From IMG/VR virus record IMGVR_UViG_3300045988_095676, positions 26,969 through 90,968 of that record: 64,000 bases of DNA. One strand, written 5' to 3'. This document shows, in pieces, positions 2,661 through 40,968 of the stretch. Every line of letters begins with the position of its first letter. The first letter of the stretch is position 1. Under the pieces are notes generated by a model. It was given only the letters and a program-made list of their open reading frames with translations. It was not told where the DNA came from and did no database searches. The DNA is from a virus. Made by a program: the position numbers and the translations under genes.

Positions 2661-3353
2661 ATGAACTACCCAGAGCAACAAATGCTTAAGATCCTTAATA
2701 GGGATCTGCTAAGTAATCCGATGTATGTTATTAACAATCTCCATATATATGATTGGGAATCTGACTTCTTGGCCATAACAAGATCATTGTACGCTTATGA
2801 AGTAGAGGTCAAGATGTCTAAACAAGATTTCTTTAACGACTTCAAAAAGGATAAAAAACATAAGGTTCTTAAAGACGGCATTATTAAAGTAGGTGGTGTC
2901 ATAAGCTATCCTCCAAACTATTTCTACTACGCCTGTCCGCCTAATATGATTGACGTAAATGAAGTTCCGTCTTATGCCGGGCTGATTTATGTCGATGTTA
3001 GTAAAAATAGGAAGAACGTCGTTAAGGTCGCACCTTTAATTCATAGACAGAAGTTTGATGTAGTGGGTAGGAAACTGGTGGATAAGTTTTACTACAATAT
3101 GCTTACTTGGAAGAAAAGAGCTATTTCAAACGTGTATGCTGACCCAGCCAAGGAAAGAGAGAAAGGCGTGCGTGCCGGGGCTGAGGCTGTGAGGAAGTCG
3201 GCCTGGGATGCGTTCAGGGCGCAGTGCCCGCACATTGCTTTCCCCTATGGAAAAGAATTTCCGATGTGTGACGATCACGAACAAGATCATCCCATGAGAG
3301 ACTGCATACTTCAGTGTGAAAAAGGTGGAATATTTAAAAACAGATTGAAATGA
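2661..3353 (+). CDS. hypothetical protein, possible PD-(D/E)xK nuclease fold
   Basis: 230-aa ORF. The segment DWESDFLAITRSLYAYEVEVK gives a D..x(12)..E-V-K spacing typical of PD-(D/E)xK (MmcB-like) nucleases. Inference only. Confidence 0.35.
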   Translation: MNYPEQQMLKILNRDLLSNPMYVINNLHIYDWESDFLAITRSLYAYEVEVKMSKQDFFNDFKKDKKHKVLKDGIIKVGGVISYPPNYFYYACPPNMIDVNEVPSYAGLIYVDVSKNRKNVVKVAPLIHRQKFDVVGRKLVDKFYYNMLTWKKRAISNVYADPAKEREKGVRAGAEAVRKSAWDAFRAQCPHIAFPYGKEFPMCDDHEQDHPMRDCILQCEKGGIFKNRLK

Positions 3354-4323: not shown

Positions 4324-4567
4324 GATATAAATGATTTTTTTAGTTAATTAATATCTTGACAAATATAGTTTTATTATACGGAAATCCTATTATTGATCTT
4401 CATAAATTAAAACTATCTTTATCCCAAAATAAGACAATTATGAGAAGAAGATTTTTTAACAAAATAGGGGGGGGTATTTACCTACTGATAATTTTATAGT
4501 TTTTGATAAATCTGTATCAGATCCGGCTAATATAACAATAAGCGAAGACAGTGATTTTTTAAATAGG

Positions 4568-5554
4568 TTGATTACAAGTGGCTTTTATAGAGTTCTTTGC
4601 AAGAGCGCTATGGGAGGAGGAGAGGTTTTTGTATGTAGGTTGAAGGAAGACAACAGCAATTTGTATCTTGATGGTAGTCAGGCTAATCTTACCGGACCAG
4701 AAGGTGATGTGATGGTCGTTTTCTTAGAATTTTGGTATAAATGGTATAAGGTGGATGATAATAGATTTCTTTATCATTTTGCTGATCATGATATTGACGG
4801 CACTTACATCCATGTCCCGGAATCTCTTGTTGGAGCATATAAAGGATATGTATCTTTGAATGGATTATATAGCTGGAGTGGTGTTAGTCCTACAACTTCA
4901 AAATCATTCAACGATTTTGAAGGTTATGCGAAAGCGCGTGGTACCGGGTTTCAGATGATAGATTTTCAACAACATTGCGTGATTGCTATGATGTTGTATG
5001 CTAAGTACAAAACACGTAATATTCAATCTGTATTAGGATTAGGTGGCGCAAATAATAATCCGGCTACAACAACGGGAAGCAGCAACGCAACCGGCGGTGC
5101 GGATACCAAAAACGAAAGTTCAAAGTACGTTTGCGGCTTAGGTTTGGAAGGGGTTTTTGGTGGTATCTATGAATGGGTTGAAGGTGTAGAAATCAACAAC
5201 CGAGTTTGGAAAATCACCGACCCAGACGGATCGACTCGCAATGTGAACGCCGGAACTTCCAATGGCTGGATAACGAATATCGCAGCGGAAAACGGTCCGT
5301 TTTTCGATGTGGTGCCGACAAATGTTGGCGGTAACGATTCCATGCATTATTCAGATTACTATAGTCAGACATCGAGCAACTCCATTGTTTTGGCGCGCTC
5401 CTATAGCGGCTCGGATACGAGTAGTGGCGTGGCGTATGCGTATGCGTCTCGCAACGCGTTGAGCGCGAGTTCGTACTTCGGTTCGCGTCTTGCTTTCCGT
5501 GGAATCATATCCGAGGTGGCTCCAGAGCAGTTCAAAAAATTACCTGTATTATAA
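4568..5554 (+). CDS. putative receptor-binding / tail-fibre-like protein
   Basis: 328 aa. The G/S/T/N-rich C-terminal half ends ...ASRNALSASSYFGSRLAFRG, reminiscent of the Fibrobacter-succinogenes-major-paralogous (FISUMP) domain. The C-terminal 200 nt are markedly GC-rich. Confidence 0.3.
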   Translation: MITSGFYRVLCKSAMGGGEVFVCRLKEDNSNLYLDGSQANLTGPEGDVMVVFLEFWYKWYKVDDNRFLYHFADHDIDGTYIHVPESLVGAYKGYVSLNGLYSWSGVSPTTSKSFNDFEGYAKARGTGFQMIDFQQHCVIAMMLYAKYKTRNIQSVLGLGGANNNPATTTGSSNATGGADTKNESSKYVCGLGLEGVFGGIYEWVEGVEINNRVWKITDPDGSTRNVNAGTSNGWITNIAAENGPFFDVVPTNVGGNDSMHYSDYYSQTSSNSIVLARSYSGSDTSSGVAYAYASRNALSASSYFGSRLAFRGIISEVAPEQFKKLPVL

Positions 5555-5633
5555 TATCATATTTTAATTGTTTTTAAATTGTATTGTTTATATTATTGCG
5601 TATATTTGCGATACAATTTAAAAACATTATATC

Positions 5634-6056
5634 ATGAAGATAAACTTTTTAAGCAGTAAAACCTATGTAGGTTCTAAGACAAAAGAAGCTAAAATCAGAA
5701 AGCTTTCTATTAGCAAAGATCGGATTATGACCATATCGGTGGACAATCTGAAATGGATGGGTATCGAAGATGCGGTTATTATTGGTATGGAAGAAGGAGC
5801 TGAGTTTAAAGGGGTGTTGGATTCTAATTTGTATATAGCTCCTTCTAAGGTAGAAGACGAGAGATCGTTTTTATTAAATAAACAAGGTGAGAAATATAGA
5901 CGTATTTACCTCCGTGATGTACTGTCTTCGTTAGGTTGGGATATCGGTGATAATCAGTATGCGGTTTATGATATTGTGAAGGTTAAGGACGAAGATGGTG
6001 TGTTCTGCCTGGTTCCGAGAGAGATTAAGAAAAGTAAGTTTGAGAAAGGAGAATGA
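5634..6056 (+). CDS. hypothetical protein (140 aa)
   Basis: ORF track; its stop abuts the start of the next gene. Confidence 0.45.
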   Translation: MKINFLSSKTYVGSKTKEAKIRKLSISKDRIMTISVDNLKWMGIEDAVIIGMEEGAEFKGVLDSNLYIAPSKVEDERSFLLNKQGEKYRRIYLRDVLSSLGWDIGDNQYAVYDIVKVKDEDGVFCLVPREIKKSKFEKGE

Positions 6057-6057
6057 T

Positions 6058-6936
6058 ATGGTACAAGATATTGATATAAAATCCAAACGAATATTATTGT
6101 TTGATTTTGATGGAACGCTTATAGAAACCGCTTCTGGGAATACGTTCGCTACAGACTTGACAGATATGAGGATTAAGATGGATGTGGTGAATAAGGCTCT
6201 TGACCTCATGCAGGAGAACGGTGTTAAGGTATTTGCTATCGTAAGCAATCAAGGAGGAGTAGAAGCTGGGTTTGTTTCTGGAGCTGATATTGAAGCTAAG
6301 ATAGAATACGTACTGAGGTCCGTACATGATCTGGCGGTAAAGAGAGGTATAAGAGGCGTCCTATATGAAAAAAGGTTGTGTTATTCAAATGACGAACAAA
6401 ATCCGATGAGGAAGCCTAATACGGGCATGATTGATGATATTCTTATGAAGTGTAAAGACACGGTAATGCGCGGTATGAACTTCAGTCAACTTAAGGGATG
6501 TTCGTTGATGGTCGGGGACGCCAGTGGTCTGCCAGGGCAGTTCTCTGATTCGGATAAGGTATGTGCCTATAATTCCGGTATTAACTATATGGATATTACT
6601 ACATTTTTGGATAAAGATCTTGATTTAGAATATGTATTGTCCAAAGAACATACAAGTGAAGGAATAGTTATTCTAAACAACGATCATATATATATCCTTG
6701 AAAATCCATATGGGGTTGGTCTTAATATAAAAATCACTTTAAAAGATTTTTATAAGATTGAAACCGATGATGGAAAAACTGCAACCGTAGATGATGTGCT
6801 GAATATAAGGATTGATAAAGATCAGAATTTTAATTCATATAGTGATGTTATAAAAATAGAAACATTAAAAGACGGTAGTATCAAATATACAAGCTTATAT
6901 CATGAAAGTAAAGAAAACAGCGATAGTTTATCATAA
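6058..6936 (+). CDS. HAD-superfamily (subfamily IIIA) phosphatase, polynucleotide 3'-phosphatase / GmhB-like
   Basis: Motif I LLFDFDGTLIET (DxDGT), motif II IVSNQGG, motif III RKPNTGM, motif IV MVGDASG..SDSD. Start moved to the ATG at 6058 immediately after the upstream stop. Confidence 0.7.
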   Translation: MVQDIDIKSKRILLFDFDGTLIETASGNTFATDLTDMRIKMDVVNKALDLMQENGVKVFAIVSNQGGVEAGFVSGADIEAKIEYVLRSVHDLAVKRGIRGVLYEKRLCYSNDEQNPMRKPNTGMIDDILMKCKDTVMRGMNFSQLKGCSLMVGDASGLPGQFSDSDKVCAYNSGINYMDITTFLDKDLDLEYVLSKEHTSEGIVILNNDHIYILENPYGVGLNIKITLKDFYKIETDDGKTATVDDVLNIRIDKDQNFNSYSDVIKIETLKDGSIKYTSLYHESKENSDSLS

Positions 6937-7858
6937 ATCGGATTTAGATGGCGTTGTATCGGCAGCCATCGCAACCATGTACGAAAACAGTAAAAACAAG
7001 GATGTTGTTTATATCCCGTATTCGTATGAAGATGATGTTAAGAAAGTTGTTGACCAAGTACGTGACTTAGATGTTGTTTATGTTCTTGACGTGTCTTTTG
7101 GAGCCGATTCTAAAACTGTTTTCAAAAAGTGGCTTGATGAAGGGAAGAGCCTGATGTGGATAGATCACCACAAGGGAATTATTGAGGACAGTAAGACATG
7201 GGGGTTCGTAGTTCCAGGGTTGAGGAGGGTCGGTGTCGGTGCGTGCGCTCTGGCTTCGGACCTGCTTATGGGGAAGGTGCCGGCGATCGTCCGATGCCTG
7301 TCAGACTACGATGTGTGGAATAAAGAATCTGGCTTAGGCTGGGATACGGTAGTAGCTGTCCAGTATGCCTTGAGATCAAAAATAAGACTCAATGTATTGA
7401 TTGCATTGTCGTATTTATATGATCACTTTAAAGAAAACATGAAAGACAATGAAATTGATCTTATTTTTTATGATCTTGCTAAAGAAGGACGTGCTATAAT
7501 TAATTACATGGCTTGTAAAAACGAAGATGAGGTAAGTAGGTACTCGTTCGAAGCTTACGTCGACGAGGTTAAGGTTATGGCTATGAATACCGCTGAATTT
7601 AGCTCTAAGGTATTTGATTCTCTTACACCGGACTGGTTAGACGGTAGAAAAATTAAAGCCCTGATGCCATTTTGTATCATGCCATGTGGAAAAGTTAGGT
7701 TCTCTCTTTACGAATGCGTAGAAGACAGCGTAGATTGCTGTGAGGTAAGTAAGAGATTCGGTGGTGGAGGACATGCTGGTGCTGCTGGATTCGTTATAGA
7801 CGTATCAAGTGACCAGTTTAAGGACTTCCTTGAAAGTAAAAAACTTTTATCGAAATGA
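6902..7858 (+). CDS. DHH/DHHA1-family phosphoesterase (NrnA-like nanoRNase / pAp phosphatase type)
   Basis: HKSDLDGVVSA (DxD motif), VLDVSFG, WIDHHKG (DHH motif), C-terminal GGGGHAGAAGF (DHHA1 GGGH motif). Confidence 0.7.
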   Translation: MKVKKTAIVYHKSDLDGVVSAAIATMYENSKNKDVVYIPYSYEDDVKKVVDQVRDLDVVYVLDVSFGADSKTVFKKWLDEGKSLMWIDHHKGIIEDSKTWGFVVPGLRRVGVGACALASDLLMGKVPAIVRCLSDYDVWNKESGLGWDTVVAVQYALRSKIRLNVLIALSYLYDHFKENMKDNEIDLIFYDLAKEGRAIINYMACKNEDEVSRYSFEAYVDEVKVMAMNTAEFSSKVFDSLTPDWLDGRKIKALMPFCIMPCGKVRFSLYECVEDSVDCCEVSKRFGGGGHAGAAGFVIDVSSDQFKDFLESKKLLSK

Positions 7859-8226
7859 AGCGTGAATTATATCAGTTCTATCCGGAAGTCTATCCTTTTA
7901 ATCTGTGGATATACGTAGGAAAAGATGTATCTGGCATGGTAGAATGTTTCAATAACGATTTTAGTTACGTAGATAATAGCAAGGCTGTAACTGTATCCGT
8001 TCCATACGGAGGGTGTAAATTAAATCCTAATACGGGATTTTTGATATGGTTTCTTAATAAGAAAATAATTGATTTTGAAACAGTTTGCCATGAAGCATCC
8101 CATGTTTCTACTGAAGCTTTTAATTTCTTAGGAGAAGAAGTAAAAAACTTCAGAACCATTCTCGTATCTCAATGGATGGATAGGGAGAAAGTGCGAGGAA
8201 GTAAAGATCGGAATAGCCGAAGATAA
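7855..8226 (+). CDS. hypothetical protein (123 aa)
   Basis: ORF track; ATGA overlap with the DHH gene. Confidence 0.45.
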   Translation: MKRELYQFYPEVYPFNLWIYVGKDVSGMVECFNNDFSYVDNSKAVTVSVPYGGCKLNPNTGFLIWFLNKKIIDFETVCHEASHVSTEAFNFLGEEVKNFRTILVSQWMDREKVRGSKDRNSRR

Positions 8227-8294
8227 ACTAATATGGGAAAGTAAATAATTACCGTCGTAAAATAAGTATGGGGAACTTTGGATAGGTTCCCCAT

Positions 8295-8385
8295 ATTTTT
8301 ATGTGATGAGGGAGAGGAATGGTGAAATGTTTATGTGATGGGAGAGATATGAGAAAGAGGTTTATGTGATGGGAGAGAGGGGGTA
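8295..8385 (+). repeat. three direct iteron-like repeats TTATGTGATGGGAGAGA spaced about 30 bp apart
   Basis: ttatgtgatgagggagagg / tttatgtgatgggagagat / tttatgtgatgggagagag read directly in the sequence. Confidence 0.8.
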
Positions 8386-8540
8386 CCTATCACGAACCTC
8401 CCGCCCCCGAAACGCGTTTTCTCCCCCGCACCCCCCTTCGCTGGAAAACCGGAAACGCGTTTTACCTCAAACCCACAAACTCTCTGATTATCAATCACTT
8501 ATTTAAATTATTGATAATCAATGTGTTATTATAACATATT
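8386..8540. promoter_or_regulatory. GC-rich island with C-tracts, two AACGCGTT palindromes and an 11-bp inverted repeat TGATTATCAAT..ATTGATAATCA
   Basis: cctcccgcccccgaaacgcgttttctcccccgcaccccccttcgctggaaaaccggaaacgcgtttta, then ctgattatcaatcacttatttaaattattgataatcaat. Ori-like or pac-like architecture; function is inferred. Confidence 0.45.
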
Positions 8541-8718
8541 GATTATAAGCCACTTAAATAAGCATATATCCTACATATTAATGTACGCGTATAACACTGC
8601 TCTCGTTCGTTTTATAACTTTCTGATAATCAGATAATATAATCGAAATTAATACAAATTAACAAAAAAAAGATATCATATATATTTGTAGTATTGATAAA
8701 TGTCGTATATTTGCGTCG

Positions 8719-8738
8719 TGATCGAGAGAGATCACGAG
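8719..8738. repeat. perfect palindrome CGTGATC-gagaga-GATCACG
   Basis: Seen directly; lies in the 8.2-8.86 kb non-coding region. Confidence 0.7.
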
Positions 8739-8858
8739 TTAACATAGTGAACCTATATAGTGTACCCGTTGGGCTAACTATATATGTATCTGTAATTGCC
8801 TGCGTTGTGGGTCATTAATTTGAATATCATTTGTTTAACAATTAAAATATATTGGGAT

Positions 8859-9398
8859 ATGATTACGAAAAAAAATGTAAACAAACTACAGAATGCCGTT
8901 ATCAAAGAAAATGCTGCAAATTTGGTAGGTGCTGTTAAACTGTACAACGCTCTATTTGCTAATGGAGCTGATCTAAAGGCTATTTGCAAGGCTTTGGAAA
9001 TACCGGCAGAATACGCCGTAAAGGTTGCAGCCCTCGCCAAGGATAAAAAACGCCTGGTAGCCGTGTGTAGCCAAATGTTACCGAAAGTTGATAATACCTT
9101 TGTTAAATTTGCTTTATACTCTAAAGTATATAAGGATACCAATGCGGACAAAGAAAAAGGAATTGAAGCTAAAACGGCTGATTGGTGCGCTGAGAATGTG
9201 GTTTACGGTAGCGAATATAAAGCATTTGGTTTTACTACTGCCGAATCATTGGAGAATAAAAAAAGTACTAAATGGTTGGTAAAAGAAACCGACGAGTACA
9301 AATCTACTTATGTGGCTGTTAAGATCAAATCTTATTCTATTCGCACTGTGGCAAAGTGTGTAAGTGAATACCTCGCACATGAAAGCAACCAGCAGTAA
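8859..9398 (+). CDS. hypothetical protein (180 aa)
   Basis: Start moved to the internal ATG at 8859, which is preceded by the conserved 19-mer TGTTTAACAATTAAAATAT. The annotated upstream extension would run through the palindrome region. Confidence 0.45.
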   Translation: MITKKNVNKLQNAVIKENAANLVGAVKLYNALFANGADLKAICKALEIPAEYAVKVAALAKDKKRLVAVCSQMLPKVDNTFVKFALYSKVYKDTNADKEKGIEAKTADWCAENVVYGSEYKAFGFTTAESLENKKSTKWLVKETDEYKSTYVAVKIKSYSIRTVAKCVSEYLAHESNQQ

Positions 9399-9983
9399 CA
9401 AGGCACGGAGAGCGCCGTTAAGCTCTCCAAAGGTTTGACGCGTACCGTTAAACGCGTCTGTACGCCGTTGTCAGTGGGTGCACGTCCCGCGTATGCTTTA
9501 GACTGAAGCTGACAAAACAGAGAGTTATTTTACATATTGGAGATAGATATACCGGTATCGAGGCCGTTGGCAATTAAAAATACGGTATTGCTGCATGAAC
9601 TGCACTAAATAAGTGTGGTTTATGTTAGGTATGTTAGTACAGTTTGGAAAACATACCGTTGTACGCGGTTTATCTCCAGACCGAAACGTGTCTTACTTGC
9701 CTACACGTAAAATAGGACAAGGCTGTAGATTAAATTACAGGGTATAAACATGTAGCCTACCATGTAGGAGCGTGATATATCAAAGCGCAAGGACACAATC
9801 GCCTTTATTTGTGGCTAAGTTGTGTAGCAGACGGAAAATATAATAACAACATAGTACGAGCCTGTACGCAAGAACTACGTACTAATTACGGGCTGTTGGT
9901 TGTAGCATAAAATCTCTATAGGATAGGAATGCGTGTCCGGTTCGATTCCGGAGCAACCTCTAAATTATAAATAATATAATAGC
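9399..9983 (+). ncRNA. 585-bp ORF-free, locally GC-rich structured region ending in a tRNA-like T-arm/acceptor minihelix (9897-9960)
   Basis: No ORF of 60 aa or more on either strand. 3' end has TCCGG-TTCGATT-CCGGA (T-loop identical to the tRNA-Cys T-loop) plus a 6-bp acceptor-like pairing GGTTGT/GCAACC. Only about 32 nt lie between the acceptor and the T-arm, so it is not a canonical tRNA. Confidence 0.4.
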
Positions 9984-10154
9984 ATGGAAAAGAAAGCAAT
10001 GATCAACGCTTTAATTGAAGCGTTCAATAAATCTAAAAACAGTTGCGTAAAAATAACATTGCGTAACTATATCGAGACGGTGGAAACATTGAGCGAAAGT
10101 GAGTACAAAGAGGCGGAAGGTTTCTATATCGAAGCACTTAACCGCTGGAGTTAA
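9984..10154 (+). CDS. hypothetical small protein (56 aa)
   Basis: ATG 24 nt after the tRNA-like minihelix; ORF translated by hand (MEKKAMINALIEAF...NRWS). Below the track cutoff. Confidence 0.35.
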   Translation: MEKKAMINALIEAFNKSKNSCVKITLRNYIETVETLSESEYKEAEGFYIEALNRWS

Positions 10155-10176
10155 TCATAATTAAAGCATAAAGAAA

Positions 10177-10383
10177 ATGGAAAGGAAATTTAAATCTTAT
10201 ATGGTAGACGTCCGCGGTCTGTCCAGGAAAGAAGCTAAAGAAAAGCGGAAAAGAGCGTATCGGGAATTTATGTTGTATCGTGATCTCAAAGAAGCGTATC
10301 ATGCCGATACAGGAAAGGACAAATGCAAACGTAAAGTCCATACATCACGAACATACGTGAAAGAAAACATAAACAGTATTTAA
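10177..10383 (+). CDS. small basic protein (68 aa)
   Basis: ORF track; K/R-rich; followed by a strong terminator. Confidence 0.45.
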   Translation: MERKFKSYMVDVRGLSRKEAKEKRKRAYREFMLYRDLKEAYHADTGKDKCKRKVHTSRTYVKENINSI

Positions 10384-10391
10384 ATAGGGAT

Positions 10392-10426
10392 AGGGTTGTT
10401 CCGAATATCGGAGCAGCCCTATTTTT
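10392..10426 (+). terminator. rho-independent terminator
   Basis: 12-bp stem AGGGTTGTTCCG / CGGAGCAGCCCT (includes G-U pairs), loop ATAT, then ATTTTTG. Confidence 0.65.
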
Positions 10427-10488
10427 GTATCCTACTCTTTCTATTTACGGGTAGGATATTCTGAGAGTGAACGGCGGATGTAAGCTAT

Positions 10489-10581
10489 ATTGGTCTAAAA
10501 CGAAACTAAAATATGAGAGTTTGGATACAATGCCGGTATTTTGTCTATATCATGTCGTTGAAATTGGTCTAAAACGAAACT
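10489..10581 (+). repeat. 19-bp direct repeat ATTGGTCTAAAACGAAACT, two copies 74 bp apart
   Basis: Identical copies at 10489-10507 and 10563-10581 in an 850-bp ORF-free region. Confidence 0.8.
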
Positions 10582-11086
10582 TTAGGCGGTTTTCTGACCC
10601 AAAATAGGGCGTCGGATGCCGCCTTTTTCGTCTCTATGGATTGAAAATTAGGCTTATTGTACTTTTCTTAAAAATAAGGTATGCTTGATTATCAATTAGT
10701 TAGGTTTTATGATACCCGTATTTTCGGACACACTTATTGTAAATTTTTTATTTTATGTGGTGGTTTTTATTAGTAGCTGACCTGTATTTTTTATCGGTTG
10801 GAGTAAGGTCTATGTTGGAGTACGGACCGGATCAGTATAATATTGTAATGGTCTTTTGCTTTTCTTTATTGGCTTTGATTATAGGCTTAAATATCTATCT
10901 TGATAGGAGGAGCAGGCGGTAGGGCGTGGGCTGAAGGCTCTCTATTCTCTCTATGGAATGATATTATCTCTAAATACCCCATACTTCATGCCAGAGTATA
11001 AGCTTGTAGCGCTCTCCGTATGCCGGTAGTGAGGCCGAGAGCGCAGGTTCTATGCGGAAAGCCGGAGGATTAGCCGGGGTTGGAGA

Positions 11087-11200
11087 GGGGGAGAGGGAGG
11101 GCACTCCCTACCAACAAAATTCAATAGATAAGCGTTTTAAAACAGTGTTCTGTAGATCATTTCCACAAAATTCAATATGATAAGGGTTTAAAACAGCATT
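11087..11200 (+). repeat. imperfect ~36-bp direct repeat ACAAAATTCAATAgATAAGcGTTTtAAAACAG, two copies
   Basis: ccaacaaaattcaatagataagcgttttaaaacagtgtt versus ccacaaaattcaatatgataagggtttaaaacagcatt. Preceded by the G-rich block GGAGAGGGGGAGAGGGAGGG. Confidence 0.7.
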
Positions 11201-11285
11201 ATATAGGTTCCTTCCAACAGATTAAGGGTTGAGGACTGCATTATGTGAGTATTTTTTTTTAAGCGGGATGTTTAACAATTAAAAT

Positions 11286-11555
11286 ATGGATGGTATGAAC
11301 GTATATGACTTTGCGCCTGACTTAGATTTGAGTAAGGAGGTAGAAGGTTCTATTTTCGGGGTAAAAGGAATAGAAGGCAGTGATGGAATAGTATATGCTA
11401 AGGTAGTTAGCTGTGTAGACGTTAAGGATTACAGTTGTGATAGGTGTATTTTTTATGATTGTTATAAGGATAAATGTTTATTATCGCGTAGTGATAGTTG
11501 TATAGATGGAGATTGGATTTGTAGGTACGAACAGGCTGCCATAGAGGGGGAGTAG
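11286..11555 (+). CDS. small Cys-rich protein (89 aa)
   Basis: ORF track; the conserved 19-mer TGTTTAACAATTAAAATAT ends at the ATG; eight Cys suggest metal binding. Confidence 0.45.
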   Translation: MDGMNVYDFAPDLDLSKEVEGSIFGVKGIEGSDGIVYAKVVSCVDVKDYSCDRCIFYDCYKDKCLLSRSDSCIDGDWICRYEQAAIEGE

Positions 11556-11663
11556 GCGGCGCCTTGGGCTAAGGCCTGCGGTTGTAGGTGGAACGTAGGT
11601 CGGAGCAGAGCCGGAACAGTTTATTGTGGAACTAAAAAAAAATAAAAAGGAGGAGATAGCGAT

Positions 11664-11744
11664 ATGAAAAAGGCATTTAAGATATTTTCTATTATGTTTG
11701 TCATAGAAATAGTGCTGATAGCTATTTTAGATGCTATGGCGTAA
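11664..11744 (+). CDS. 26-aa hydrophobic peptide MKKAFKIFSIMFVIEIVLIAILDAMA (leader or membrane peptide candidate)
   Basis: Strong SD AAAAGGAGG 7 nt upstream of the ATG; its stop codon abuts the 5' end of tRNA-like element A. Confidence 0.35.
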   Translation: MKKAFKIFSIMFVIEIVLIAILDAMA

Positions 11745-11869
11745 GTGAGAAAAATTTCTTCATTAATTTTCTTATGCTTTAGACAGAATGCTCCCATCTG
11801 CGAAGATCGGAGCATTTGCTTTATGGGATTCATGGTGCAGCAAGTCGGTTCGATTCCGGCGATCTCACA
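11745..11869 (+). ncRNA. tRNA-like structured element A (paralogue of element B)
   Basis: 5' GTGAGAA pairs with 3' ATCTCAC. T-arm TCGG-TTCGATT-CCGG. Internal 8-bp hairpin AATGCTCC..GGAGCATT enclosing an ATCT-GCGA-AGAT GNRA tetraloop. The tail ATCTCACAcAACAtTAAAA is shared with element B. Ends 22 nt before the next ATG. Confidence 0.45.
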
Positions 11870-11891
11870 CAACATTAAAATAGGGAAGAAC

Positions 11892-12296
11892 ATGTTAAAA
11901 GAAGAATTTGAAGAACTGATTAAAAGGGAGGTAAACGAAAATCAGTATAAAAACATAGAAACGGCATACGAGGCTTTGCCGGAGTATATGGATAAGATGT
12001 ATTTAGCAAGTGCTATTTCAAATGATATTGGGAAAGCTATTAATGTCTTATCGTTTTTAGGATCGCATATAAGCGAGTTAATGGGTTCGATAATAATCGA
12101 AAGGCAAAAGGTGGAATCATGTGCCTATGATTTAATAAACAAATCGCATGAGGAGGATGACTTGAAAGCAAGAGAGATTGCCGTGCGATTAATAGGAGAG
12201 AGGGAAACAGTGGCATACACAGTAAAAGAAGGGCTGCCATTGTGGGAACAAGATAAAAAGTTTATAATAGAATTAATAAAGGAGGATAGAAAATGA
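11892..12296 (+). CDS. hypothetical protein (134 aa)
   Basis: Start moved to the ATG at 11892. The track's GTG-start extension from 11745 would read through structured element A. Confidence 0.45.
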   Translation: MLKEEFEELIKREVNENQYKNIETAYEALPEYMDKMYLASAISNDIGKAINVLSFLGSHISELMGSIIIERQKVESCAYDLINKSHEEDDLKAREIAVRLIGERETVAYTVKEGLPLWEQDKKFIIELIKEDRK

Positions 12297-12622
12297 AAGA
12301 CGGTATTGTATTGCATCCAGAGCATGGGTTGAATCCATCCATAGAACTATGCATAGTATGCGGTGAAGAGATGGGGATTGCTTTATTAGGGAATAACATC
12401 AAAGGGCAGGCGCCGCATCATATATGCACGGGAGAAATATGTGACAATTGCAAAAAGATAATAGATGACGGAGGTTGTTTTATTATCGAAGTTGAGGATG
12501 GATCAGATCAAAAGAATCCGTATCGTACAGGGAGATATTGCGCGATAAAGAAAGAAGCAGCAAAGAAAATACTTGGACAGGAGCATAGTATTGTGTACAT
12601 GGAAAAGTCTGCGTACAGTTAA
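12293..12622 (+). CDS. hypothetical Cys-rich protein (109 aa)
   Basis: SD AAGGAGG before the ATG; CxxC..C..C pattern. Confidence 0.45.
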   Translation: MKDGIVLHPEHGLNPSIELCIVCGEEMGIALLGNNIKGQAPHHICTGEICDNCKKIIDDGGCFIIEVEDGSDQKNPYRTGRYCAIKKEAAKKILGQEHSIVYMEKSAYS

Positions 12623-12648
12623 ATAATACCACAAAAATAAAGAAAGAT

Positions 12649-12963
12649 ATGTTTGCAAAAGAAGAGCGATTATTCATATGGAAAAAGGTATATGAGATGA
12701 TTGATAGGTTAGAGGATGGGGAATACATATGTGTTGCGTTAAGAAATGTAGTGTTTATGTATTTCAAAACACATAAAAATATCTATGAGTTTCGTTCAGA
12801 CGAAATGGTGAGAATATATTTCCCGGAATTGGAAGAGAAGATAAGTATGGCCACAGAACCAGAGGAAACAAGAACGTTTTATGGGTGGTTTGGTTGTCTT
12901 AGTCCAGAAACGAAGGAGGTAAGGCTGAATATTGTGAAAGATATTATAAAAGAATTAGAATAG
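12649..12963 (+). CDS. hypothetical protein (104 aa)
   Basis: ORF track. Confidence 0.4.
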   Translation: MFAKEERLFIWKKVYEMIDRLEDGEYICVALRNVVFMYFKTHKNIYEFRSDEMVRIYFPELEEKISMATEPEETRTFYGWFGCLSPETKEVRLNIVKDIIKELE

Positions 12964-13022
12964 TATTTTTGTTAATCTATTTTATTCATCAAATTAAGTT
13001 TTGGGTTTTGGCATGTCGGTTC

Positions 13023-13118
13023 GTGAGGATAGGCATGCCTATTTCTGCATCATAGAGGGGATGACGCGGCGTGCCGGTGCGTATGTGCCGGTCCTGGTTC
13101 GATTCTGGGCATCTCACA
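13023..13118 (+). ncRNA. tRNA-like structured element B (paralogue of element A)
   Basis: 5' GTGAGGA pairs with 3' ATCTCAC. D-arm-like hairpin GATAGG-CATG-CCTATT. T-arm CCTGG-TTCGATT-CTGGG. Tail ATCTCACAaAACAaTAAAA. About 96 nt. Ends 20 nt before the next ATG. Confidence 0.45.
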
Positions 13119-13138
13119 AACAATAAAACAAAAAAGTT

Positions 13139-13372
13139 ATGAGAATATATAAGAATGATATTATAAAGGCGTCAGCAATAAGCACCGGAGCCGACAGAGG
13201 CGTGTTGCTGTGTTCAATAACAGATTCAGGCTTTACGTCTATAGCGGGCGTAATATCGGCTGTTAAGGATAGGTTACCAAACGAAGATCACAAGAAGATG
13301 GTTTTTGAAATCTTGAATGATACGAAAAAAGAGTACGGAAGATATAATAATTGCGGAACAAAAGTATTGTAA
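13139..13372 (+). CDS. hypothetical protein (77 aa)
   Basis: ORF track; lies immediately downstream of element B. Confidence 0.4.
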   Translation: MRIYKNDIIKASAISTGADRGVLLCSITDSGFTSIAGVISAVKDRLPNEDHKKMVFEILNDTKKEYGRYNNCGTKVL

Positions 13373-13491
13373 TAAAGAGTAGAAAACAATATGTTTATGT
13401 AATATTAGTTTTTTCATTTTTATTGAAAGGAGCGCCGGCCTGTGAAGGTATGCGCTCTTTGTATTTGTATAATGCATAAAACAATAATAAT

Positions 13492-26903: not shown

Positions 26904-27371
26904 ATGGGATTAACCTATAAAACAAAATTGCTTATGAAAACATTAGAACAACTTAAAGAATTAACATCAAAATGTTTAGACGGTAGAGATTTTAACAGAC
27001 TGGCTAAATTTGTTCCATATAGCATGATAAAGGATTTCGGTATGGAGCCGAATGAAGAATATGACAACGAGGAAAAGTGGAACAGTACTGTAGTTGAATT
27101 TACCAGAGAAAATGTCCTGAAACAGCTTGAAGAAGACGTAAGATTCGGTTTTGAAAAGGCATTAAATCAGAGAGGAATATCAGCCAGTTTGATGTTTGAA
27201 TGTGTGATGATGTGGAACTACATTCTGGAAGAAGGTCTTGAAGGCTGGGGTGAGGATGATTATGCATTTTATGGACTCCCTCTATTTAAAGCTACGGCTG
27301 TAAAATATGGATGGGACAATCCGATAGGGGAAGACAGCGGGAGAGAAAGAAAATATGATTCACAATATTAA
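26904..27371 (+). CDS. hypothetical protein (155 aa)
   Basis: ORF track. Confidence 0.4.
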   Translation: MGLTYKTKLLMKTLEQLKELTSKCLDGRDFNRLAKFVPYSMIKDFGMEPNEEYDNEEKWNSTVVEFTRENVLKQLEEDVRFGFEKALNQRGISASLMFECVMMWNYILEEGLEGWGEDDYAFYGLPLFKATAVKYGWDNPIGEDSGRERKYDSQY

Positions 27372-39774: not shown

Positions 39775-40968
39775 TTGATGAGATTGGTTGAAAAACATAT
39801 TATTAAAGATAACAGATTTGAAGATATTTGCCTCAAATCAGGATTGCTATATAATTATGTCTTGTATAATGCGCGTAAAGGTATCTTCAATAAAGAATAT
39901 CTGAATGAATATGAATTTTCAACCAAACTTTGTAGAGAAAATCAATTTGATTTCAGGAATTTGCCCACTTCTGTTTCTCAACAAGTAGTTGGCCAAGTTT
40001 TTAAAAATATAAAATCATGGATTAGACTCAAGAAGGATTTTGAAAACAATCCTTCCAAATACGATAATTGTTGTCCTCATCTACCTTCGTACAAGAAAGG
40101 CAAGAAACAGAACATGGTTGTGTTCACAACTTCTGCTTGTAGGCTAAAGAAGGATGGTTGTATTCATTTTGTTAAAAATATAATTCAACCAATTAAAACT
40201 GAAATAGGAGATAGTAAATTATGTCAGGTTAGAATCATTCCACAATCTACATGCTATGTGGTTGAAGTAATTTATGAAAAGAAAGAACATAATCTAAGTC
40301 TTGATAAGGATAATGTTCTTTCGATTGATTTAGGATTGAATAATTTATGTTCATGTATCAGCAATGCCGGATTGGTTCCTTTCATTGTAAACGGGCGGAT
40401 TATGAAATCTTTTAATCAGTGGTACAATAAGAGGAAAGCTAAGTTAATGTCTTATGTTGGAGGTAAGGGTACTTCTGAAAGACTTAGACAGCTAAATAAT
40501 TATAGGAATTTTTGGATAGAAGACTACATCCACAAGGTTAGTCGATATATTGTCAATTATTGTATTACTAACAACATTGGTAGTATCGTAATAGGTTTAA
40601 ATAAAGGATGGAAACAAAAGATTAATCTTGGAAAGAAGATTAATCAAAAGTTTGTTGAAATACCTTTTTCAAGACTTATAGACAAAATATCCTATAAATG
40701 TAAGTTGGTAGGTATCAGCTTTCAAATTAATGAAGAATCCTATACATCAAAGGTTGATCATTTAGCTTTTGAGAAATTAGGGAAGCATGATGTTTACTTA
40801 GGCAAAAGAAAGAAACGTGGATTATTCCAAAGCTCAGTTGGAAAGTTGTTAAATGCGGATATCAATGGAGCTATTGGGATAGGTAGAAAAGTATTCGGTG
40901 ATTCATTTGTAAACATGATAATCGATAGTGGGTTTGCGTTTAACCCGATTAGAGTAAACATTTTGTAA
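39775..40968 (+). CDS. TnpB-like (IS200/IS605 OrfB, Cas12 ancestor) protein with degenerate zinc finger and RuvC-II; nuclease-dead candidate
   Basis: RuvC-I VLSIDLGLNN, RuvC-III NADINGAIGIG and YTSK present. RuvC-II reads IVIG-LNKGW (Glu replaced by Gly, one residue shorter). The zinc-finger segment TSKVDHLAFEKLGKHDVYLGKRKKRGLFQSSVGK has no Cys. No TnpA nearby. Confidence 0.7.
   Translation: MMRLVEKHIIKDNRFEDICLKSGLLYNYVLYNARKGIFNKEYLNEYEFSTKLCRENQFDFRNLPTSVSQQVVGQVFKNIKSWIRLKKDFENNPSKYDNCCPHLPSYKKGKKQNMVVFTTSACRLKKDGCIHFVKNIIQPIKTEIGDSKLCQVRIIPQSTCYVVEVIYEKKEHNLSLDKDNVLSIDLGLNNLCSCISNAGLVPFIVNGRIMKSFNQWYNKRKAKLMSYVGGKGTSERLRQLNNYRNFWIEDYIHKVSRYIVNYCITNNIGSIVIGLNKGWKQKINLGKKINQKFVEIPFSRLIDKISYKCKLVGISFQINEESYTSKVDHLAFEKLGKHDVYLGKRKKRGLFQSSVGKLLNADINGAIGIGRKVFGDSFVNMIIDSGFAFNPIRVNIL

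Follow-up and report, generated by a model that had tools for sequence, protein, structure and literature searches.

The 64,000-nt stretch of DNA analysed here (the window; positions 26,969 to 90,968 of IMG/VR virus record IMGVR_UViG_3300045988_095676) contains, between positions 8227 and 13138, an island in which small genes alternate with repeat arrays, palindromic DNA and three elements, A, B and C, that carry a transfer RNA (tRNA)-like T-arm (Table 1). Judged from alignments of relatives, the island holds a structured RNA of ~500 nt that is absent from Rfam 15 (the A RNA), two related tRNA-like leaders at gene-cassette junctions (B and C), and variable repeat arrays that bracket a likely genome end. 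The phage belongs to the crAss-like genus Epsilonunovirus and is ~94% identical to crAssE-Sib: window positions 10466-13400 match the end of GenBank record OR575929 at 93.9% identity; other close relatives comprise more than 100 IMG/VR contigs and hundreds of metagenomic protein clusters. crAssE-Sib itself, a phage of the human gut with a 151-kb genome, belongs to the genus Epsilonunovirus within the epsilon crAss-like group (PMC11054128). Of the crAss-like reads in human gut viromes, 13-18% come from epsilon phages (Yutin et al., 2021, PMC7886860), which have a minimal replication set, without a DNA polymerase and without the crAss RNA polymerase gene block (PMC7886860), so that promoters for the host RNA polymerase are expected.

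Coding and non-coding DNA of the island

A greedy open reading frame (ORF) call covers 90.5% of the whole window, and five of the seven largest gaps it leaves (at least 297 nt) lie between 8.2 and 13.3 kb. To separate real genes from chance ORFs, we used the codon position of variable sites and the preservation of frame across 24-80 distinct relatives. The genes that passed lie at 8859-9398, 9984-10154, 10177-10383, 10755-10922, 11286-11555, 11664-11744, 11892-12296, 12293-12622 and 12649-12963, and their sum makes the island ~49-51% coding. Those that failed (8366-8506, 9613-9910, 11052-11180 and 13001-13126) lack third-position bias and are frameshifted in 5-21 relatives each; for the ORF overlapping element C, this is 21 of 42. 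Reading TAG or TGA as sense codons leaves the ORF-free stretches as unfilled as the standard code does. An earlier reading made from the sequence alone (the sequence-only reading) had described a half non-coding 5-kb island in a gene-dense phage, and this description holds in all three codes (~50% versus ~90% coding); by the same codon-bias and frame tests, the region is not densely coding in relatives either. The four ORF-free stretches listed in that reading are likewise real, except that 10430-11285 includes a genuine 55-amino-acid (aa) gene and 11556-11891 a genuine 26-aa micro-ORF. The repeats, GC-rich patches, purine-rich motifs and terminators that it described were all found, the terminators as hairpins followed by U-tracts.

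The GenBank record of crAssE-Sib annotates hypothetical coding sequences (CDSs) over parts of the A RNA and element C and over both GC-rich blocks (556-843, 1938-2105, 150547-150669 and 148558-148716 in record coordinates), as might be expected if the gaps were filled by small genes or an alternative code. In our alignments, the equivalent ORFs are frameshifted in relatives and lack codon bias, which makes it probable that these CDSs are spurious, and neither alternative code closes the gaps. An assembly artefact would have to explain why the same island sequence recurs in more than 100 independent assemblies. We therefore find hidden coding sequence or misassembly scarcely credible as an account of the island.

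Table 1. Features of the island, in window coordinates (., no strand assigned; variable sites are listed by codon position)
Feature	Position	Strand	Basis or description
Intrinsic terminator, GGGGAAC..GTTCCCC + U-tract	8266-8300	+	Read from sequence; follows gene 7855-8226
Repeat array 1, module left boundary	8297-8378	+	Three ~31-nt units TGTTTATGTGATGGGAGAGAG ending in GGGAGAGAGGGGG (family D3)
Conserved C-rich/GC-rich block	8379-8470	.	Two copies of CC(C/G)GAAACGCGTTTT (family D5); G-runs on minus strand
AT-rich nested-palindrome block, 21.5% GC	8478-8640	.	Includes TTGATNATCAA sites; inverted repeats I1, I4, I6
Two Bacteroides-type -7 boxes TATATTTG	8680-8713	+	Consensus scan; second has -33 TTTG
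Gene P179, 179 aa	8859-9398	+	Variable sites 66/43/156; always beside A RNA
A RNA, structured, ~500 nt	9463-9958	+	Alignment fold, covariation
A RNA, predicted core (~350 nt)	9483-9833	+	RNAalifold
A RNA, predicted hairpin	9859-9894	+	RNAalifold
A RNA, predicted tRNA-like module	9898-9958	+	RNAalifold
orf56 (56 aa) and orf68 (68 aa), after A RNA	9984-10383	+	Variable sites 7/6/17 and 18/7/45
Strong intrinsic terminator	10387-10427	+	Read from sequence; stem kept in alignment fold; would close putative transcription unit
Hairpin ATCCTAC..GTAGGAT, then predicted end	10429-10466	.	PhageTerm start of crAssE-Sib, mapped
Two exact 19-nt direct repeats ATTGGTCTAAAACGAAACT, 74 nt apart	10489-10581	+	0.01 expected by chance
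Terminator-like hairpin + U-tract	~10606-10630	.	Read from sequence
Gene, 55 aa, hydrophobic	10755-10922	+	Variable sites 13/6/26; intact in 39/40 relatives
GC-rich conserved block, module right boundary	10923-11101	+	Ends in GGGGTTGGAGAGGGGGAGAGGGAGGG (11076-11101)
Repeat array 2	11103-11262	+	21-nt unit ACTCCCTACCAACAAAATTCA and ~51-nt units with GTTTTAAAAC-type palindrome (family D2)
19-mer TGTTTAACAATTAAAATAT abutting/overlapping start codon	11269-11287	+	Family D9
Micro-ORF, 26 aa, hydrophobic	11664-11744	+	GGAGG ribosome-binding site; intact in 57/60 relatives
Element B	11745-11869	+	Alignment fold; ends 22 nt before ATG 11892
Swappable gene cassette directly after B	11892-12296	+	Present in ~40 of ~100 relatives
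Element C	13011-13118	+	Hairpin 13011-13041, GUGAG../..UCUCAC frame, T-arm; ends 20 nt before ATG 13139

A structured RNA and three tRNA-like elements

Within the non-coding half, conservation and compensatory base-pair changes delineate one ~500-nt RNA and two smaller elements. The largest, the A RNA, folds in an RNAalifold analysis of 43 relatives into 22 helices with 123 pairs, and standard pairs fill 99.4% of the 5289 sequence-by-pair cells. Both sides have changed in 21 pairs, compared with 10.5 ± 1.9 in column shuffles, none of which reached 21 in 500 trials; when the 3' partners were slid by 1-3 columns, only 1-6 such pairs were found and pairing fell to 33-43%. Divergence is 3.5-6% at 9451-9550 and 9801-10000, as against 10-18% in the upstream protein gene (43-45 relatives), and the more variable stretches in between correspond to helices whose two strands change together. 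Whole helices have been replaced, with GUAUC/GAUAC giving way to GCCCUU/AAGGGC around an invariant GCCGUUGGC hairpin, and CUGUA/UACAG to CUACG/CGUAG or CUGCG/CGCAG. The loop of helix 11 also forms a pseudoknot with nucleotides further downstream (9696-9699/9718-9721), in which two pairs covary and the outer 4 bp contain no broken cell. The core is joined by an invariant A-rich linker to a hairpin and a tRNA-like 3' module, which has an acceptor (GGUUGU/GCAACC) and a T-arm and no D-arm. That base pairing is under selection in A and B, and to a lesser degree in C, and with it the non-coding DNA, is the best supported of our conclusions.

The A RNA matched nothing in Rfam 15 at gathering thresholds, and two lax scans (E≤10) returned chance-level matches only. 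Because introns are common in some crAss-like families (PMC7886860) and the window carries a tnpB gene (39775-40968, 27 kb from the island), we weighed whether the A RNA might be a group I or II intron or another known ribozyme, or whether the island might encode omega or guide RNAs for TnpB, as the sequence-only reading had proposed. The lax-filter scans detect neither an Intron_gpI core nor any other Rfam family, and each flanking ORF is a complete gene, P179 ending in its own stop codon and orf56 beginning at its own ATG; orf56 is also swappable. K-mer comparison of the island with the tnpB locus finds no shared k-mer of 16 nt or more, and the 9 matching 12-mers lie within the range of shuffled sequence (mean 3.4, maximum 14). 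The guide-RNA proposal is thus not borne out, and an intron or known ribozyme seems to us most improbable.

By context only, the closest analogues of the A RNA appear to be ROOL and GOLLD, phage-encoded RNAs of hundreds of nucleotides that usually lie beside tRNA genes and have many helices and pseudoknots; GOLLD can carry tRNAs covalently in a linker (PMC12286853). Like them, the A RNA is phage-encoded, tRNA-associated, longer than 400 nt and pseudoknotted; it lies ~7 kb from the phage tRNA cluster and its A-rich linker leads to the tRNA-like module. Since it fails the sequence and structure models that define ROOL and GOLLD, matching neither even at E≤10, it is not a member of either family. 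It also differs in occurring in a Bacteroidota phage (ROOL and GOLLD are mostly from Firmicutes, Actinobacteria or marine sources), in carrying a D-arm-less tRNA mimic rather than a tRNA, and in being known from one phage lineage. A processing signal alone would not call for a body as large and elaborate as these ~400 nt, and we infer that the A RNA is a new, lineage-specific large non-coding phage RNA.

Searches for homologues found none outside this lineage. In GenBank phages, blastn and tblastn matched crAssE-Sib alone, and PLSDB plasmids showed no similarity. Three contigs of more distantly related phages, which encode a DHH protein of 35-41% identity, are densely packed with genes, with no similarity to the island and no such elements within ±10 kb. 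All proteins listed in a search for P179 homologues were at least 87% identical. A scan of GTDB genomes with an unspecific 17-mer gave at least 120 listed matches, of which blastn confirmed none, the pattern being too short to show absence.

All three elements share a canonical 5-bp T-stem and a 7-nt UUCRANY T-loop followed by an acceptor-like 3' strand. The motif GGTTCRANTCY occurs seven times in the window, where 0.49 copies would be expected by chance; four copies belong to true tRNAs (Met, Gln, Arg and Cys at 2283-2645, called by ARAGORN and Rfam) and three to the island (9939, 11847 and 13096, all on the plus strand). The T-arms are UCCGG-UUCGAUU-CCGGA in A, GUCGG-UUCGAUU-CCGGC in B and CCUGG-UUCGAUU-CUGGG in C, and their T-stems covary among relatives. 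The sequence-only reading had recognised three tRNA-like elements, and their T-arms are indeed canonical, but the elements are not tRNA genes: taking an ARAGORN cloverleaf or an Rfam RF00005 score of at least 29 bits as the mark of a canonical tRNA, we found none at 9.9, 11.85 or 13.1 kb, including in the two lax scans. In place of a D-arm and a 7-nt anticodon loop, A has no D-arm and a middle arm with a variable 5-nt loop, and the interiors of B and C are long unrelated inserts. ARAGORN called no transfer-messenger RNA (tmRNA), the sole match being a 17-nt T-arm to beta_tmRNA at 9.9 bits.

What that reading had missed is the position of the T-arms just 5' of start codons. The elements end 20-25 nt upstream of the start codons at 9984 (A), 11892 (B) and 13139 (C), and 43-45 nt separate T-loop and ATG in all three (42-51 nt in alternative cassettes). 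The genuine tRNA-Cys of the phage (2573-2661 region) is placed likewise: it ends 16 nt before the ATG of the ORF at 2661-3353, its CCA is not encoded, and its trailer, TCTAAAAAAG, is similar to the trailer that follows element A. Counted on the alignment, the last 27 nt of A (T-arm, acceptor strand and trailer) are ~85% identical to tRNA-Cys, which argues for a tRNA origin of the A module.

Plant-mitochondrial t-elements and the mascRNA of MALAT1 are tRNA-like structures that serve at the ends of mRNAs as processing signals for RNase P (5' side) and RNase Z (3' side). Elements A, B and C have the same combination of acceptor and T-arm mimic, without decoding capacity, at gene boundaries. They differ in their acceptor stems, which are shorter or interrupted. 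We know of no bacteriophage or Bacteroidota example of tRNA punctuation of this kind, and a literature search found none.

The resemblance of A to the 3' end of tRNA-Cys could also mean that the T-arm elements are attP-like fragments of host tRNAs or decaying tRNA pseudogenes, and temperate behaviour has been suggested for the genus, although the authors of that proposal found no integrase (PMC11054128). Integration would not be expected to use three different sites. The alignments lead us to reject neutral decay of tRNA genes, as the elements are conserved as much as or more than genes and the T-stems change compensatorily among phage variants. We consider this origin very unlikely.

In element B, the closing stem GUGAGA/UCUCAC is combined with the T-arm and with a hairpin, AAUGCUCC..GGAGCAUU, whose loop is GCGA. 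Alignment folding of the B region (60 sequences) gives 6 compensatory pairs, in the hairpin, the T-arm and upstream, with 0.3% broken cells. Element C shares the closing-stem sequences and T-arm of B and has a different interior. Their common 3' motif, GGTTCGATTCYGGNNATCTCACA, is present in more than 114 IMG/VR contigs, usually twice in each. Relatives that lack the gene at 11892-12296 have another gene instead directly after B; the flanks after B and after C exist in two versions each, and in one contig (L045) B is followed by a C-type flank. On these grounds, the alignments place B and C at cassette boundaries. We also note a 16-mer, TATGCTTTAGAC(T/A)GAA, that is common to the A RNA (9492-9507) and B (11773-11788) and invariant in relatives; exact copies occur only at these two sites, near-matches are at chance level, and it cannot form the same hairpin in both RNAs. 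It might be a protein site, a promoter or a tertiary contact.

A comparable arrangement is found in the PeSL modular shuffling cassettes of T4-type phages, in which a conserved structured motif precedes small early genes. Here too, small genes of unassigned function each follow a conserved structured motif at a point where cassettes exchange. The motif is a tRNA-like RNA rather than a promoter and stem-loop, and exchange is seen at one clear swap junction (after B) and in the L045 chimera. In another relative (L120, JGI 3300029692), a TnpB gene (OrfB_IS605 and Cas12f1-like TNB) is inserted ~0.9 kb downstream of C (L120:15896-17035) and an HNH endonuclease gene lies inside the tRNA cluster (L120:5030-5722), indicating that mobile elements are active around the tRNA cluster and element C.

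The location of A, B and C directly upstream of start codons would also suit purely cis-acting 5' leaders, attenuators or ribo-regulators in which the T-arm is a scaffold or a handle for a protein or the ribosome, with no processing. B in particular comes after a conserved micro-ORF of 26 aa, the stop codon of which touches or overlaps the 5' closing strand of B, as would be compatible with leader-peptide control, and both B and C have candidate promoters a short way upstream. The A RNA fits such a role less well, being ~500 nt long and preceded by a gene rather than a promoter box. No riboswitch or leader family of Rfam is matched, and the gene after B has been swapped while B was kept, which argues against a gene-specific sensor. 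An exclusively cis-acting role thus strikes us as rather doubtful.

Repeat arrays, predicted genome end and neighbouring genes

The sequence-only reading had noted that purine-rich GGGAGAG motifs recur in the island, and these prove to be the two ends of a real module of 2.74 kb (8360-11100). The module has repeatedly been assembled as a stand-alone contig of ~2.75 kb, as in Logan contigs L117 (2752 bp, starting at 8360 in array 1) and L118 (2766 bp), which correspond to window positions 8349-11101. Several clusters of P179 proteins whose longest contig is ~2.75 kb have thousands of members (2010, 1707 and 2680). A repeat array lies at each boundary. The units of array 1 are 29-33 nt long and number three here and 1-9 in relatives; in array 2, relatives have 1-7 copies of the 21-nt unit and 2-4 of the ~51-nt unit. 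The two arrays thus vary in copy number, and their units are unrelated. IMG/VR contigs of this locus end preferentially at 8250-8500 and 11000-11250, that is at both arrays, presumably because the repeats exceed the k-mer of the assembler. Next to array 1, most columns of the C-rich block at 8379-8470 are at least 90% conserved, and GGGGTTGGAGAGGGGGAGAGGGAGGG, next to array 2, is the only canonical G-quadruplex motif in the window. The palindromic block contains one of the only two exact copies of TTGATNATCAA in the window (8511 and 10685, both within the island); counted with one mismatch, this palindrome is not above chance.

Between the arrays lies a predicted genome end, which the sequence-only reading had also missed. 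The genome start of crAssE-Sib was set by PhageTerm (p = 1.5e-22; PMC11054128), and the junction between the end and the start of that record maps to window position 10465|10466, directly after a hairpin. We consider it most likely that the arrays, the palindromic block and the predicted end serve proteins of packaging, genome ends or replication. In T7-like genome ends, concatemer junctions and pac regions, repeats flank the DNA ends and early promoters lie just inside. The island resembles these in its arrays, in the hairpins around the predicted end and in candidate promoters just inside it; it differs in that no terminal direct repeat is evident and that the arrays are 2.1 kb and 0.6 kb from the predicted end.

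The same features could instead belong to a module for replication or plasmid maintenance, with the arrays as iterons or centromere-like sites, the AT-rich block as a DNA-unwinding element, P179 as initiator or site-binding protein, and the RNAs in a secondary role as primer or in copy control. Units of ~30 nt and ~51 nt, the latter with palindromes, and direct repeats near an AT-rich element would fit, as would a 21.5% GC palindromic block that adjoins GC-rich, G-quadruplex-prone flanks. The epsilon group has a minimal replication set with no DNA polymerase (PMC7886860), and the authors of the crAssE-Sib study raise a plasmid-like temperate lifestyle (PMC11054128). P179, however, matches no Rep, Par or helix-turn-helix family, and its AlphaFold2 model, built from a shallow alignment, is not usable (predicted local distance difference test, pLDDT, 40.5). 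The units of the two arrays are unrelated, PLSDB plasmids show no similarity, and there is no GC-skew turn at the site, as the skew stays positive across the region, though all genes are on one strand. Nor would a replication module explain the covariation of the RNAs. A replication origin in the island is possible, and a replication or maintenance module as the main role of the island is a reading to which we give some, but limited, credence.

Boxes of the TAnnTTTG type are about four times as frequent in the island as outside it (1.84 versus 0.44 per kb) and lie upstream of P179, B and C, with a candidate -7 box at 12964 before C. Those at 8680-8713 form a candidate promoter for a unit P179 - A RNA - orf56 - orf68. 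The terminator at 8266-8300 is covered by a weak match to a ctRNA-like hairpin. A second, identical copy of TGTTTAACAATTAAAATAT (8832-8850) ends 8 nt short of the start codon of P179 (8859). There are thus two exact copies of this sequence, and one match with 3 mismatches, compared with 0.19 expected at up to 3 mismatches; the exact copies stand before P179 and orf89, the genes that come first after array 1 and array 2.

P179 has no match in Pfam, PHROG or NCBIfam, and a search of all island proteins against these databases gave nothing informative (PHROG 15742 and 11852, function unassigned, and DUF6241, sub-threshold). Upstream of the island (0.4 kb away, and ~1.6 kb before the A RNA), genes for a polynucleotide kinase/phosphatase and a DHH (NrnA-like) phosphoesterase overlap by 35 nt (5995-7858). 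The two are fused in some relatives, for example in P0124 (536 aa, PF08645 and PF02272), and represent an RNA-end-healing pair. Two more ORF-free gaps lie further upstream, at 4324-4567 (244 nt, with a G8 run at 4467) and 5555-5994 (440 nt), and GC content is ~50% around 5200-5500.

A proposed terminus-proximal control region

Taken together, we favour the interpretation, with a probability of roughly 0.55, that the island is a control region close to the genome terminus whose non-coding half consists of functional RNA and DNA elements. The view of the sequence-only reading that this is a hub of regulatory or RNA-based functions is supported in so far as the DNA is functional and much of it RNA-like; guide RNAs for TnpB are not supported, and the decoys that it also listed are purely speculative. 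The region would be transcribed by the host RNA polymerase into polycistronic RNAs in which the tRNA-derived T-arm/acceptor modules act as punctuation for processing or stability. Processing of the tRNA type is proposed because a T-arm/acceptor mimic precedes the start codon at three sites and a true tRNA is placed alike. With cleavage of the RNase P or RNase Z type, the downstream gene would receive a short A/U-rich leader, and the RNA upstream would end in a protected, tRNA-like 3' terminus. Short A/U-rich leaders suit translation in Bacteroidota. Module A would be tethered to a multi-helix, pseudoknotted RNA of ~400 nt that would be a large phage RNA of a new kind, whereas B and C would be shorter versions with candidate promoters of their own, B following a leader-like micro-ORF of 26 aa at a cassette exchange junction. 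The arrays, each next to a G-rich motif and together bracketing the module with the predicted genome start, would be cis-acting sites bound by proteins for packaging, genome ends or replication.

Several observations weigh against this interpretation. The 43 aligned sequences are close relatives with a mean column identity of 89%, so relatedness somewhat inflates the covariation statistics. In the A RNA, the long-range closing helix of the core is invariant and competes with a local stem (9463-9468/9489-9494) that has one compensatory change, and the 5' end of the A RNA and the closure of its core are therefore only tentatively placed. The 5' GUGAG of element C falls within the loop of a competing hairpin that has one-sided changes in its favour. 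Recognition by RNase P is not assured, because the acceptor-like stems depart from the canonical form: that of A has 6 bp, and those of B and C have 6 bp plus two mismatches and are offset from the T-stem. Promoters and terminators are identified only by their match to a consensus. A single paper, on a relative, reports the PhageTerm call and does not state the type of end, and the ends of IMG/VR contigs cluster at the repeat arrays and not at 10466. Finally, homologues from outside the lineage were not found in GenBank phages, PLSDB or the three DHH-encoding contigs.

A more speculative extension, which we advance tentatively, is that in Epsilonunovirus the A RNA founds a new class of large trans-acting RNAs to which a tRNA-mimic handle is covalently attached. 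It might act as an RNA-only assembly, like the homo-oligomeric cages of ROOL and GOLLD, or as a decoy or sponge for host enzymes and defences directed at tRNAs, with B and C as reduced paralogues that double as recombination joints for early genes.

Epsilon crAss-like phages rank with the most abundant viruses in the human gut, yet no function is known for most of their genes. The two genome papers (PMC11054128 and PMC7886860) do not mention non-coding RNAs in these phages. The repeat arrays offer an explanation for the breaks seen at this point in assemblies of these phages, and the tRNA-like modules offer a concrete mechanism for the exchange of gene cassettes. The A RNA, supported by covariation, without a match in Rfam and fused to a tRNA mimic, would add a Bacteroidota-phage case to a short list of large phage RNAs such as ROOL and GOLLD. 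If they are cleaved, the tRNA-like modules before start codons would be a bacterial-virus counterpart of the tRNA punctuation of organelles.

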